A stretch of 64,000 bases of DNA from the NCBI RefSeq assembly GCF_054482595.1, contig NZ_CM137008.1. One strand, given 5' to 3'. Made by a program: the position numbers. This document shows positions 51,501 through 54,500 of the stretch, piece after piece (the first letter of the stretch is position 1; each line of letters starts with the position of its first letter).

Positions 51501-54500
51501 AATTAAGTACAATAAGAAGAGGAACATTTATGAAGTCTGCATTAAAGAAAAGTGTCGTAAGTACCTCGATATCTTTGATACTGGCATCTGGTATGGCTGC
51601 ATTTGCTGCTCATGCGGCAGATGATGTAAAGCTGAAAGCAACCAAAACAAACGTTGCTTTCTCAGACTTTACGCCGACTGAATACAGTACCAAAGGAAAG
51701 CCAAATATTATCGTACTGACCATGGATGATCTTGGTTATGGACAACTTCCTTTTGATAAGGGATCTTTTGACCCAAAAACAATGGAAAATCGTGAAGTTG
51801 TCGATACCTACAAAATAGGGATAGATAAAGCCATTGAAGCTGCGCAAAAATCAACGCCGACGCTCCTTTCATTAATGGATGAAGGCGTACGTTTTACTAA
51901 CGGCTATGTGGCGCACGGTGTTTCCGGCCCCTCCCGCGCCGCAATAATGACCGGTCGAGCGCCCGCCCGCTTTGGTGTCTATTCCAATACCGATGCTCAG
52001 GATGGTATTCCGCTAACAGAAACTTTCTTGCCTGAATTATTCCAAAATCATGGTTATTACACTGCAGCAGTAGGTAAATGGCACTTGTCAAAAATCAGTA
52101 ATGTGCCGGTACCGGAAGACAAACAAACACGTGACTATCATGACAACTTCACCACATTTTCTGCGGAAGAATGGCAACCTCAAAACCGTGGCTTTGATTA
52201 CTTTATGGGATTCCACGCTGCAGGAACGGCATATTACAACTCCCCTTCACTGTTCAAAAATCGTGAACGCGTCCCCGCAAAAGGTTATATCAGCGATCAG
52301 TTAACCGATGAGGCAATTGGCGTTGTTGATCGTGCCAAAACACTTGACCAGCCTTTTATGCTTTACCTGGCTTATAATGCTCCGCACCTGCCAAATGATA
52401 ATCCTGCACCGGAGCAATATCAGAAGCAATTTAATACCGGTAGTCAAACGGCAGATAACTACTACGCTTCCGTTTATTCTGTTGATCAGGGTGTAAAACG
52501 CATTCTCGAACAACTGAAGAAAAACGGACAGTATGACAATACTATTATTCTCTTTACCTCCGATAATGGTGCGGTTATCGATGGTCCTCTGCCGCTGAAC
52601 GGGGCGCAAAAAGGCTATAAGAGTCAGACCTATCCTGGCGGTACTCACACCCCAATGTTTATGTGGTGGAAAGGAAAACTTCAACCCGGTAATTATGACA
52701 AGCTGATTTCCGCAATGGATTTCTACCCGACAGCTCTTGATGCAGCCGATATCAGCATTCCAAAAGACCTTAAGCTGGATGGCGTTTCCTTGCTGCCCTG
52801 GTTGCAAGATAAGAAACAAGGCGAGCCACATAAAAATCTGACCTGGATAACCTCTTATTCTCACTGGTTTGATGAGGAAAATATTCCATTCTGGGATAAC
52901 TACCACAAATTTGTCCGTCATCAGTCAGACGATTACCCGCATAACCCCAACACTGAGGACTTAAGCCAATTCTCTTATACGGTGAGAAATAACGATTATT
53001 CGCTTGTCTATACAGTAGAAAACAATCAGTTAGGTCTCTACAAACTGACGGATCTACAGCAAAAAGATAACCTTGCCGCCGCCAATCCGCAGGTCGTTAA
53101 AGAGATGCAAGGCGTGGTAAGAGAGTTTATCGACAGCAGCCAGCCACCGCTTAGCGAAGTAAATCAGGAGAAGTTTAACAATATCAAGAAAGCACTAAGC
53201 GAAGCGAAATAACTAAACCTTCATGCGGCGGAATTTTCCGCCGCCTTATTGAGCGAGATAGCGATGCACGTTACAGCCAAGCCCTCCAGTTTTCAATGTA
53301 ATCTCAAATGTGATTACTGTTTTTACCTTGAAAAAGAGTCGCAGTTTACTCATGAAAAATGGATGGATGACAGCACTCTGAAAGAGTTCATCAAACAATA
53401 TATCGCAGCGTCTGGCAATCAGGTCTATTTTACCTGGCAAGGCGGTGAACCCACTCTGGCTGGCCTGGATTTTTTCCGTAAAGTTATTCACTATCAACAA
53501 CGCTATGCAGGCCAAAAACGTATTTTTAATGCATTACAAACGAATGGCATTTTATTGAATAATGAATGGTGTGCCTTTCTCAAAGAACATGAATTTCTGG
53601 TTGGTATCTCGATCGATGGCCCCCAGGAGTTACATGACCGTTACAGACGCAGTAATTCAGGTAACGGTACTTTTACAAAAGTGATAGCAGCCATCGAGCG
53701 TCTGAAATCATATCAAGTAGAGTTTAATACGTTAACCGTCATTAATAACGTTAATGTCCATTACCCTCTTGAGGTTTATCATTTTTTAAAATCTATCGGC
53801 AGTAAACATATGCAATTTATCGAATTGCTAGAAACCGGGACGCCGAATATTGATTTCAGTGGTCATAGTGAGAACACATTCCGTATCATTGATTTTTCTG
53901 TGCCTCCCACGGCTTATGGCAAGTTTATGTCAACCATTTTTATGCAATGGGTTAAAAACGATGTGGGTGAAGTTTTCATCCGTCAGTTTGAAAGCTTTGT
54001 CAGCCGTTTTTTGGGGAATGGGCATACCAGTTGTATTTTCCAGGAGTCCTGCAAGGATAATCTGGTTGTTGAAAGTAATGGAGACATTTACGAATGCGAC
54101 CATTTTGTCTATCCACAGTACAAAATTGGAAACATTAATAAATCTGAACTCAAAACGATGAACAGTGTACAACTGACAGCGCAAAAAAAACGGATTTCAG
54201 CGAAATGTCTGAAATGTGCATATAAACCTATCTGCAATGGCGGTTGTCCTAAGCATCGTATTACTAAAGTAAACAATGAGACTGTTTCTTATTTTTGCGA
54301 AGGTTATAAAATCCTTTTTTCAACCATGGTACCTTATATGAACGCCATGGTAGAGTTAGCTAAGAACAGAGTACCGCTTTATCACATTATGGATGTTGCA
54401 AAACAAATGGAGAATAATTAATAACACGCCCTCTTAGCTCCAGTCTTAGCCTACGTCTTATGACCTTAACAAAGCACCCGACATAAATTCCTGTCGGGTG

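Follow-up and report, generated by a model that had tools for sequence, protein, structure and literature searches.

The window, the whole 64,000 nt stretch of E. coli DNA that was analysed, very probably carries between positions 51530 and 54421 the conserved ydeN-ydeM operon, a self-contained two-gene module made up of an exported Ser-type sulfatase and its activating radical-SAM enzyme. ydeN-ydeM is already known as a long-annotated, near-universal core-genome pair of E. coli, and because of that long annotation the observation itself is of little weight. The leads that follow from it give a short, testable list of substrates for YdeN, and a known substrate would clarify how E. coli uses sulfated host and dietary glycans in the gut.

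The ydeN-ydeM pair and its predicted products

The ORF list, alignment and annotation agree on the identity of the pair, and the coordinates given in the preliminary description (51530-54421) proved exact to the base. The features of the two genes and their flank are listed below, with the basis for each in brackets.

51530..53212, + strand: ydeN, predicted exported family S1 serine-type sulfatase, 560 aa (ORF list, Pfam, RefSeq annotation of identical DNA)
51530..51616, + strand: putative Sec signal peptide of YdeN, residues 1-29, cut after A-H-A (read by eye from sequence)
51917..51958, + strand: sulfatase signature GVSGPSRAAIMTGR; the Ser132 codon at 51923-51925 is the predicted formylglycine precursor (sequence)
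53225..53244, + strand: GC-rich hairpin in the gap between the two genes (free energy -18 kcal/mol, z about -3)
53264..54421, + strand: ydeM, radical-SAM/SPASM anaerobic sulfatase-maturing enzyme, 385 aa (ORF list, Pfam, NCBIfam, anSMEcpe alignment)
53297..53320, + strand: CNLKCDYC, radical-SAM [4Fe-4S] motif, Cys12/16/19 (sequence; aligns with the anSMEcpe motif)
54032..54298, + strand: SPASM region with cysteines 257, 263, 278, 315, 318, 324, 328 and 345, and Asp279 (sequence, anSMEcpe alignment)
54475..54500, no strand assigned: inverted repeat CACCCGACA...TGTCGGGTG downstream of ydeM, possible transcript end (terminator/repeat scan)

Both reading frames are uninterrupted, that of ydeN from the ATG at 51530 to the TAA at 53212, and that of ydeM, which starts 51 bp further downstream, from the ATG at 53264 to the TAA at 54421. 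The DNA here matches several E. coli chromosomes with ydeN/ydeM annotation at 100% identity, and the two genes are the same as ydeN (b1498) and ydeM (b1497) of E. coli K-12, flanked in both cases by ydeP-safA-ydeO on the upstream side and by yddA-yddB on the downstream side. Disrupting mutations were looked for by exact alignment and none were found, as expected from the earlier description of both ORFs as intact; 559 of the 560 residues of YdeN and 380/385 residues of YdeM are identical to those of a K-12-like strain, with no frameshift and no stop in either. Relative to K-12 there is a single substitution in YdeN (D295E) and five in YdeM (A138T, I237V, P312S, Q316L and Q317K), two of which fall between the cysteines of a CxxC, and one base is changed in the spacer of a CRP site (see below). 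Of 5426 complete E. coli genomes, 5322 carry the locus. IS elements split ydeM in some strains.

YdeN matched the Pfam sulfatase profile PF00884 over the whole length of the profile (E 1.3e-70, 238.6 bits; curated cut-off, 25 bits). The two family S1 signatures, taken as (C/S)-x-P-x-R followed by x3-(L/M)-T-G-R, and as G-Y-x-T-x2-V-G-K-W-H, are both present: the first, GVSGPSRAAIMTG, lies at residues 130-142 (G-V-S132-G-P-S-R-A-A-I-M-T-G) and is of the serine type, and the second, GYYTAAVGKWH, lies at residues 175-185. The metal-binding and catalytic residue set of the family (two Asp after strand 1, an Arg, a Lys/His pair, a His, an Asp-Asn and a Lys) is also present in YdeN, and in an alignment of 37 family members D66, D67, R136, H185, H286, D345 and K364 are invariant, while K183 and N346 are at least 90% conserved. 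The AlphaFold model of YdeN has a pLDDT of 90.9. Residues 1-29 include three lysines, a hydrophobic core (mean Kyte-Doolittle value 1.68) and A-H-A at the predicted cut, with no twin arginine; this region has low pLDDT in the model, with a helix at residues 10-24. Together, the profile match, the acceptor motif and the Sec-type signal, as read by eye, bear out the secreted sulfatase with a formylglycine-acceptor motif that had been proposed. Among more specific NCBIfam models, YdeN scored below the cut-offs for both the arylsulfatase equivalog NF010322 (123.8 bits; cut-off 481) and choline sulfatase TIGR03417 (97 bits; cut-off 433).

The S-G-P-S-R sequence around Ser132 is unchanged across 17 orthologues, and the acceptor position is occupied by Cys in most YdeN relatives of 30-45% identity. 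YdeN contains no cysteine, and since its acceptor is a serine in a cysteine-free protein, the adjacent maturase is predicted to be necessary. Neither the serine acceptor nor the lack of cysteine had been mentioned in the preliminary description.

YdeM has Radical_SAM and SPASM domains (Pfam), and scored 503 bits against the anaerobic sulfatase maturase model TIGR03942, covering profile positions 1-362 of 363, well above the equivalog cut-off of 349.45 bits. CxxxCxxC is found at residues 12-19 (C12-N-L-K-C16-D-Y-C19) and the SAM-binding motif GGEP at residue 60, and all 11 cluster cysteines are present, so that the CxxxCxxC and C-terminal Cys clusters attributed earlier to the maturase are borne out by motif and by HMM search. 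A full-length alignment was obtained with anSMEcpe of Clostridium perfringens (PDB 4K36-4K39; E 4e-63, 216 bits), a distant rather than a close relative. The two enzymes have in common the CxxxCxxC, a GGE motif, eight auxiliary-cluster cysteines and a Cys-Asp pair, with C257, C263, C278-D279, C315, C318, C324, C328 and C345 of YdeM aligning one-to-one with anSMEcpe (4K36), but the predicted natural substrate of YdeM is a serine and not a cysteine. The Yersinia and Aeromonas partners, two distant orthologues, retain all of these SPASM residues. YdeM also had hits below the cut-offs among SPASM peptide maturases, DynA, DarW and DarE included, which could be taken to mean that it is a peptide-modifying radical-SAM/SPASM RiPP maturase that lies beside a sulfatase by chance and does not act on YdeN. 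This is highly improbable, as anaerobic sulfatase maturase is the only equivalog that YdeM passes (503 against 349 bits, compared with 218 against 450 for DynA), no precursor-peptide ORF is evident, adjacency to a sulfatase persists in at least five genera in different contexts, and a Ser-type, cysteine-free YdeN requires a maturase of this kind.

The AtsA/AtsB pair of Klebsiella pneumoniae appears to follow the same logic, with a Sec-exported Ser-type sulfatase and an adjacent maturase that makes formylglycine before export, and AtsB belongs to the equivalog model that YdeM passes. AtsB/anSME enzymes form formylglycine on the sulfatase before it is exported, and the Klebsiella genes are arranged with atsB before atsA. 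ydeNM differs in that the sulfatase gene comes first, the arylsulfatase equivalog score is not reached, and regulation is apparently linked to carbon and not to sulfur. By analogy with AtsB/anSME, cytoplasmic YdeM would bind the still-unfolded YdeN, the 5'-deoxyadenosyl radical would take the C-beta hydrogen off Ser132, and the residue would be oxidised by YdeM to formylglycine. After this modification YdeN would be exported via Sec and would fold around a divalent metal (D66, D67, D345 and N346), and in the periplasm the hydrated aldehyde would cleave a sulfate ester. A foreign Ser-type sulfatase reportedly stays unmatured in E. coli without added AtsB (work ascribed to Szameit, 1999, and Benjdia, 2007). 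This failure could reflect poor expression of YdeM, or a YdeM that is specific for YdeN. YdeM may be what allows E. coli to activate Ser-type sulfatases, and a known substrate of YdeN could be of practical help to those who express such sulfatases in this host.

In the Yersinia, Aeromonas and Salmonella cassettes described below, and in the E. coli paralogue, the position that corresponds to the intercistronic hairpin is also taken by a hairpin, though of another sequence. In ydeNM the hairpin probably holds the maturase transcript below the level of that of the sulfatase. The function of the inverted repeat downstream of ydeM is uncertain since it has no T run on the + strand.

The upstream region, regulation and selection

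Upstream of ydeN lies an AT-rich spacer that is 97% conserved among seven E. coli lineages, with the following features.

51129..51529, no strand assigned: ydeO-ydeN intergenic regulatory region, 401 bp, 31.9% GC (composition; reported AraC, GadX and CRP target)
51176..51198, + strand: ydeO intrinsic terminator, stem-loop and T run (terminator scan)
51235..51250, - strand: distal CRP binding site TGTGATGAATGTCACT (matches the Footprint-seq ydeN-associated site save one spacer base)
51307..51334, + strand: sigma-70 promoter hexamers TTGTCA-16-TATTAA (published promoter; unique match in the window)
51449..51464, + strand: putative proximal CRP-type site TGTGACTAACTTCACT (pattern match; invariant in seven strains)
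51463..51492, + strand: candidate proximal promoter CTTACA-18-TAAAAT (consensus scan, not above chance alone)

Transcription of ydeNM would begin within this spacer, and the ydeO terminator upstream implies that the pair has a promoter of its own. The published ydeN promoter belongs to the genomic-SELEX constitutive set and carries no H-NS flag there, whereas the neighbouring ydeP promoter does (PMC3946193); its -35 hexamer is polymorphic among strains. The distal CRP site has been tied to ydeN by Footprint-seq with high affinity (Kd about 1.8 nM; PMC12871828), and its half-sites are invariant in seven strains. The pattern TGTGA-N6-TCAC[AT] has only two matches in the 64 kb (0.19 expected), both of them in the ydeO-ydeN spacer, and the presence of two CRP-type sites upstream suggests CRP-cAMP control of ydeN. 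If the -10-like TAAAAT sets the transcription start, the proximal site is centred approximately 42 bp upstream of that start, as in a class II arrangement, and it is only because of this spacing that the proximal promoter is proposed. A generic scan for promoters and terminators gave counts not above those in shuffled sequence, and all of its hits but the ydeO terminator and, on a tentative basis, one promoter were set aside. At least nine of ten core matches to a CRP-type site were found nowhere upstream of the Yersinia, Aeromonas, Salmonella and Anaerobiospirillum-like cassettes or of the E. coli paralogue, so the CRP sites are apparently specific to E. coli.

Arabinose-bound AraC and, in acid, GadX have been published as repressors of ydeN, and the spacer is a reported target of both. 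Searches for the AraC operator TAGC-N7-TCCATA with up to two mismatches gave 41 matches in the window (about 51 expected) and none in the spacer, and the weak half-site-like sequences that can be made out by eye at 51402-51440 (minus strand) are no better than would be expected by chance in DNA this rich in AT. No RNA family was detected in an Rfam scan of 49800-54800 at E values up to 1.

The roughly 400 bp of AT-rich DNA upstream had been noted before and read as a sign of tight silencing. The composition was as described (401 bp at 31.9% GC), but a spacer with CRP sites, a sigma-70 promoter and reported AraC and GadX targets looks like a conditional regulatory region and not a silencer, and ydeNM is apparently regulated like a sugar-scavenging gene. 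The related view that the pair is cryptic, a remnant silenced by H-NS and out of use in E. coli, draws on the AT-richness of the whole locus (GC content of 31.9% for the spacer, 44% for ydeN and 38.5% for ydeM, compared with 46.9% for the window), a composition typical of DNA that was acquired horizontally and is bound by H-NS. It also draws on the lack of a known substrate or phenotype (for example, deletion of ydeN has no effect on azo-dye reduction), on the interruption of ydeM by IS elements in some strains, and on the excess of non-synonymous (5) over synonymous (1) differences between ydeM of the window and that of K-12. Nevertheless, we consider this quite unlikely. Both genes are under purifying selection, with dN/dS values among eight E. 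coli lineages of 0.02 for ydeN and 0.08-0.11 for ydeM and no stop in either gene, and very few genomes lack an intact pair. Relaxed selection on ydeM, as hinted by the K-12 comparison, was rejected with the eight lineages, where 14 of the segregating sites are non-synonymous and 32 are synonymous, for a ratio of about 0.1.

Published expression data point the same way. ydeN mRNA falls about 40-fold at pH 4.4, among the strongest down-shifts recorded (PMC10746267), and such a fall implies that the gene is well expressed at neutral pH; YdeN protein has been found in O157 grown anaerobically (PMC3936929). When cells meet acid or envelope stress, ydeN drops alongside mal, xyl, tre, lamB, glp and nag genes, and it is reported to respond to Psp and Cpx as well as to AraC and GadX. 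The label 'cryptic' thus finds neither the relaxed selection nor the absent expression that it would entail, and the H-NS flag in the published promoter table lies at ydeP and not at ydeN.

Related cassettes and the possible substrate

Orthologous pairs, a sulfatase gene followed by a maturase gene about 55 nt further on, were found in Yersinia, Aeromonas, Salmonella and an Anaerobiospirillum-like gut bacterium, in unrelated contexts. Sulfatase, hairpin and maturase form a portable two-gene cassette that recurs in several genera of Proteobacteria. It is flanked by an ABC transporter in Yersinia, by IS elements and a porin in Aeromonas and by an integrative element in Salmonella, and these unrelated flanks indicate mobility of the cassette but are otherwise uninformative on its substrate. 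No glycoside hydrolase or dedicated transporter adjoins the orthologous cassettes, so that genomic context names no substrate.

The best matches to YdeN, by both sequence and structure, are S1_19 and then S1_16 galactose-4-O-sulfatases. Characterised S1_19 members remove 4-O-sulfate from galactose units (PMC5066984; PDB titles). The carrageenan galactose-4-O-sulfatases ZgCgsA (9HH2), Ps iota-CgsB (6B0J) and PsS1_19B (6PSM) gave sequence E values of 3e-52 to 1e-42, and S1_19 enzymes take structural ranks 1-11, with TM-scores of about 0.8 on target length and the same catalytic residues. There are also clear differences: identity over the structural alignment is only about 26-28%, the S1_19 enzymes are Cys-type and YdeN Ser-type, and an insertion of about 37 residues (72-108) after DDLGYG, present close to the active site in YdeN and shared by its wider family, is absent from the S1_19 structures. 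The S1_19 hosts are marine, whereas that of YdeN is enteric and has no carrageenan locus around the gene. Judged from sequence and fold, the S1_19 enzymes are the nearest solved relatives, with the insertion and the Ser-type motif setting YdeN apart, and given the low identity and the insertion their specificity is not transferable to it. An S1_19 enzyme of Akkermansia had no activity on any mucin-type substrate tested.

The nearest non-orthologous relative of YdeN is the sulfatase P0122 of Plesiomonas shigelloides (40% identity, 449 bits), which shares the insertion and adjoins an anSME but, unlike YdeN, is Cys-type. Its locus is of the chondroitin/dermatan-sulfate type, with a KdgM porin, a DUF2264 protein and GalNAc/tagatose-pathway genes, whereas ydeNM stands alone. 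The other sulfatase of that locus is near-identical to a chondroitin/dermatan sulfate 4-O-endosulfatase (6J66). On the strength of the S1_19/S1_16 relatives and of this chondroitin/dermatan-locus cousin, the best guess for the substrate is a sulfated galacto-type sugar. It would most likely be a small carbohydrate of host glycan or dietary origin, such as a Gal- or GalNAc-4-sulfate-type ester, and YdeN would serve carbon rather than sulfur scavenging. The 'mucin or glycosaminoglycan sulfate' suggested in the preliminary description is compatible with such a substrate.

Two other functions were weighed. YdeN may be an arylsulfatase that scavenges sulfur as AtsA of Klebsiella does, releasing sulfate from aromatic esters when sulfate or cysteine is scarce. 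It resembles AtsA in being a periplasmic Ser-type sulfatase with an AtsB-type maturase, older annotations call it a putative arylsulfatase, and the sulfonated dye FD&C Red 40 induced ydeN and no other gene. We regard this as unlikely, given a score of 124 bits against the 481 of the arylsulfatase equivalog and nearest structures that are carbohydrate and not aryl sulfatases. The reported regulators are CRP, AraC and GadX, and ydeN co-varies with sugar-uptake genes; in general reading on ydeN, no report of control by CysB, Cbl or sulfate starvation was met.

YdeN has also been speculated to be a mucin GlcNAc-6-O-sulfatase, from 33% similarity to Bacteroides BT4656 (PMC10878103). BT4656 (5G2V) is indeed a detectable relative, and in mice a gut-adapted araC mutant showed raised expression of ydeM and of the nag genes, which serve the use of GlcNAc, but the S1_19 and S1_16 enzymes are much closer to YdeN than 5G2V is, in sequence (3e-52 against 3e-30, with the 5G2V match mainly over a short stretch) as well as in structure (5G2V at rank 38), making a GlcNAc-6-sulfate specificity very unlikely.

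A galacto-type 4-O-sulfate as the target of YdeN leads to a broader, and still speculative, reading of the pair: ydeNM may be a Ser-sulfatase and maturase cassette exchanged horizontally by enteric and aquatic Proteobacteria, which in E. coli has come under the CRP/AraC carbon-scavenging network and strips 4-O-sulfate from small galacto-type sugars in the periplasm for sugar uptake. If this is true, E. coli is a cross-feeder on sulfated glycan debris. Sources of such debris might be, for example, GalNAc-4-sulfate from the breakdown of chondroitin or mucin by other gut microbes, or fragments of dietary carrageenan.

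The ydeN-ydeM pair and its predicted proteins

Two uninterrupted ORFs make up the pair, and their ends in the ORF list agree exactly with the coordinates given for the pair in the preliminary description:

51530-53212 (+), ydeN, sulfatase gene, ATG to TAA, 560 aa
53264-54421 (+), ydeM, maturase gene, ATG to TAA, 385 aa

The ydeN ATG is the RefSeq start and has an AAGAGGA Shine-Dalgarno sequence 8 nt before it; an in-frame TTG is also present, 33 nt upstream of this ATG. Several complete E. coli chromosomes (e.g., O157:H16 Santai and XH990) match the 3.6 kb region 51129-54710 at 100% identity; in these, ydeN is annotated as a sulfatase-like hydrolase/transferase and ydeM as an anaerobic sulfatase maturase. 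Of 5426 complete E. coli genomes, 5322 contain the locus at a coverage of at least 80%. The K-12 gene order is kept, with ydeP, safA and ydeO upstream and yddA and yddB downstream. Exact alignment to a K-12-like strain, examined for disruptions, was gap-free, and both proteins were near-identical (559/560 residues for YdeN, 380/385 for YdeM). The window represents ordinary chromosomal E. coli DNA, in which the already known ydeN-ydeM pair, as first proposed, is intact. Antisense to ydeM, at its 3' end, is a small ORF (54387-54539, minus strand), the counterpart of the 40 aa YneP of K-12; in the window lineage 6 of the 40 residues differ, an extra upstream ATG would give 50 aa, and RefSeq names it 'hypothetical protein' rather than YneP.

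YdeN gives a full-profile match to the Pfam Sulfatase family (PF00884, E 1.3e-70) and carries both classical sulfatase signatures, GVSGPSRAAIMTG (residues 130-142) and GYYTAAVGKWH (175-185). The formylglycine precursor position is occupied by Ser132 (codon TCC, 51923-51925) and not by cysteine, and since the whole protein contains no cysteine, YdeN is strictly a Ser-type sulfatase. In a 37-member family alignment, the catalytic and metal-binding residues D66, D67, R136, H185, H286, D345 and K364 are invariant, while K183 and N346 are kept in at least 90%. Residues 1-29 (MKSALKKSVVSTSISLILASGMAAFAAHA), read by eye, form a predicted Sec signal peptide with n-, h- and c-regions and no twin arginine. 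The AlphaFold model, for which a 37-sequence alignment was the input, has a mean pLDDT of 90.9 and is confident except in the signal peptide and linker. All the sequence-level hallmarks of an S1 sulfatase are present, and YdeN is a putative sulfatase.

YdeM matches the Radical_SAM and SPASM domains, and the maturase motifs first noted by eye were recovered in the HMM search, where it scored 503 bits against TIGR03942, the NCBI equivalog for anaerobic sulfatase maturase (cut-off 349); every peptide-maturase model was far below threshold. It aligns end-to-end with the anaerobic sulfatase-maturing enzyme (anSME) of Clostridium perfringens, anSMEcpe (structure 4K36, E 4e-63). The CxxxCxxC motif corresponds to C12/C16/C19, GGE is found at residue 60, and the eight auxiliary-cluster cysteines (257, 263, 278, 315, 318, 324, 328 and 345) pair one-to-one with those of anSMEcpe, as does the Asp after the third of them. 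These cysteines are invariant in the YdeM partners of Yersinia (66% identity) and Aeromonas (64%). No signal peptide was found in YdeM, as expected for a cytoplasmic enzyme acting before export. YdeM thus has every sequence feature of an anSME, and is a putative maturase. At residues 316-317 (54209-54214), which lie between the cysteines of C315-x-x-C318, an auxiliary-cluster motif, YdeM of the window lineage reads Leu-Lys and that of seven other lineages Gln-Gln; with T138 and V237 these are four private substitutions, against one synonymous difference from K-12.

The pair would work like Klebsiella AtsA/AtsB and the clostridial and Bacteroides anSME systems, in that the radical-SAM enzyme would oxidise the motif residue to formylglycine while the sulfatase is still unfolded, and the sulfatase would then be exported and hydrolyse sulfate esters.

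Selection and spread of the cassette

Segregating sites counted across eight E. coli lineages are 53 synonymous and 4 non-synonymous in ydeN (ratio 0.02), and 32 and 14 in ydeM (ratio about 0.1); neither gene has a stop codon in any lineage. The pair is neither cryptic nor decaying. Relaxed selection on ydeM had been considered from a two-sequence comparison (5 non-synonymous vs 1 synonymous), a reading overturned by the eight lineages. Insertions into ydeM are seen in strain 88COLEC, where an IS3-family element splits it into two pseudogene fragments (contig L019, 2136-4629) in a locus otherwise 100% identical to the window, and in strain AR437, which carries an IS2.

YdeN orthologues (70-84% identity) occur in Leminorella, Citrobacter, Proteus, some Salmonella, Yersinia (Y. 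pestis, Y. pseudotuberculosis, Y. enterocolitica), Aeromonas veronii, Shewanella, Iodobacter and Anaerobiospirillum-like gut bacteria. The S-G-P-S-R motif is kept in 17 of the 17 aligned, and a radical-SAM gene lies about 55 nt 3' of the sulfatase in every orthologue context examined. The flanks are wholly different, comprising an ABC transporter in Yersinia, IS elements and a porin in Aeromonas, and an integrase/TraI element in Salmonella. The two genes behave as a portable cassette. This mobility in other genera, together with the GC content of the ydeO-ydeN-ydeM stretch, which is markedly AT-rich for E. coli (44% GC in ydeN, 38.5% in ydeM, 32–37% in the spacers), is consistent with an old horizontal acquisition of 51129-54421. 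In an exhaustive profile search, the score dropped from about 970 bits for orthologues to 449 bits for the closest other sequence (about 40% identity), and the orthologue group is therefore isolated.

A second ydeN-like sulfatase (565 aa, 77% identity, S-G-P-S-R; contigs L006, 3847-5544, and L007, 2729-4426) is present in some E. coli and belongs to a cluster of 303 member sequences. Its gene immediately follows a porin gene, with an IS110 transposase close by, and only short ORF fragments are found at the maturase position. Megablast gave eight plasmid matches to the locus.

The control region of ydeN and the ydeN-ydeM junction

Features of the ydeO-ydeN spacer (51129-51529) and of the ydeN-ydeM junction are as follows:

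51176-51198, ydeO intrinsic terminator, near the spacer start
51235-51250, CRP site of a Footprint-seq preprint, with one spacer change from the published sequence
51307-51334, sigma-70 promoter TTGTCA-16-TATTAA, published for ydeN from genomic-SELEX
51449-51464, proximal CRP-type site TGTGACTAACTTCACT, equal in core quality to 51235-51250
51487-51492, candidate -10 element TAAAAT
53225-53244, GC-rich hairpin GCGGCGGAAUUUUCCGCCGC, between the ydeN stop and ydeM start

Since the ydeO terminator stands at the start of the spacer, ydeNM has its own promoter. In the 2026 preprint, the CRP site listed for ydeN (taTGTGAtggatgTCACTtat) is of high affinity (Kd about 1.8 nM). This site and the proximal one are the only matches to TGTGA-N6-TCAC[AT] in the 64-kb window (0.19 expected), and the half-sites of both are invariant in 7 lineages. 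The centre of the proximal site and the transcription start predicted from TAAAAT are about 42 bp apart, with the site upstream, which is class II CRP geometry, and we infer a promoter at this element served by that site. In the genomic-SELEX list, the neighbouring ydeP promoter has an H-NS flag and ydeN does not; H-NS may possibly bind at the spacer.

AraC binding upstream of ydeN needs arabinose (PMC3738151), and in the part of PMC10878103 that cites Stringer 2014, ydeM and ydeN are said to be co-transcribed and over-expressed in an araC deletion strain. GadX, which binds at the ydeN promoter, reduces ydeN mRNA (PMC4918353), at pH 4.4 ydeN is down by log2 5.3 together with xylF, malE, malM and treC (PMC10746267), and the Psp and CpxR regulon tables show it lowered, as are lamB and genes of the glp and nag groups (PMC2731931). 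At the protein level, YdeN was found in O157:H7 grown anaerobically (PMC3936929). From these data, ydeN is expressed at neutral pH and is repressed by arabinose, by acid and by envelope stress, and the CRP sites suggest that carbon limitation may be a further signal. The abstract of Stringer 2014 reportedly describes arabinose-dependent repression. No sulfur-starvation regulator is among those reported for ydeN, which favours carbon scavenging over sulfur scavenging.

The AT-rich region of about 400 bp noted upstream of ydeN is real in composition (401 bp, 31.9% GC), but the tight silencing read from it conflicts with published expression and regulation; the spacer serves as a control region and gives no evidence of silencing. 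The preliminary description was correct in its observation of an intact pair at these coordinates, but its interpretation is supported only in part, since the 'cryptic and silenced' label conflicts with the selection data as well. What is usefully gained is a clearer view of the promoter region and a short list of testable substrates.

The hairpin between the genes (-18 kcal/mol, z-score about -3) has a poor T run after it. At the equivalent position, the cassettes of Yersinia (-18.6), Aeromonas (-24.8) and Salmonella (-14.4) and the E. coli paralogue (-20.2) also have hairpins, unrelated in sequence. Such retention of position without sequence conservation suggests a function, most likely as a partial terminator or 3'-end stabiliser that would keep sulfatase mRNA above maturase mRNA. 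Inside ydeN, TGTCAAAAATCAGTAATG (52086-52103, plus strand) is identical to an intragenic PhoB site listed for this gene in a PhoB regulon study, the title of which states that many such sites are transcriptionally inert (PMC10294691).

Substrate leads

Comparisons with relatives point to sulfated galacto-type sugars as candidate substrates of YdeN. The best solved relatives by sequence (9HH2, 6BIA/6B0J and 6PSM; E 3e-52 to 1e-42) are all carrageenan galactose-4-O-sulfatases of SulfAtlas subfamily S1_19, followed by a kappa-carrageenan sulfatase of subfamily S1_16, and Foldseek ranked S1_19 chains 1–11 against the YdeN model, then S1_16. SulfAtlas gives endo-4S-iota- and kappa-carrageenan sulfatases as the S1_19 activities (PMC5066984); none of the substrates tried was cleaved by an Akkermansia S1_19 enzyme. 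YdeN and its relatives at 30–45% identity have in common an insertion of roughly 37 residues (72-108) that is absent from S1_19 structures, and most of these relatives are Cys-type, so that S1_19 is only a candidate subfamily for YdeN. The GlcNAc-6-O-sulfatase BT4656, put forward as a YdeN analogue (PMC10878103), matches far less well (3e-30 by sequence, rank 38 by structure). YdeN scored far below the cut-offs of the NCBIfam arylsulfatase and choline-sulfatase equivalogs. In E. coli exposed to FD&C Red 40, a sulfonated azo dye, ydeN was the one gene significantly induced, and dye reduction was unchanged by ydeN deletion (PMC10653809).

The nearest non-orthologue is P0122, a sulfatase of Plesiomonas shigelloides (40% identity). 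Its locus (contig L014, 4252-11248) holds GalNAc/tagatose-type genes (DeoR regulator, PTS, SIS, GatZ-like, aldolase and kinase), a KdgM porin, an anSME, a DUF2264 protein and a second sulfatase, near-identical (964 bits) to 6J66, a chondroitin/dermatan sulfate 4-O-endosulfatase. This compact locus looks like a chondroitin/dermatan-sulfate utilisation locus of an enteric bacterium.
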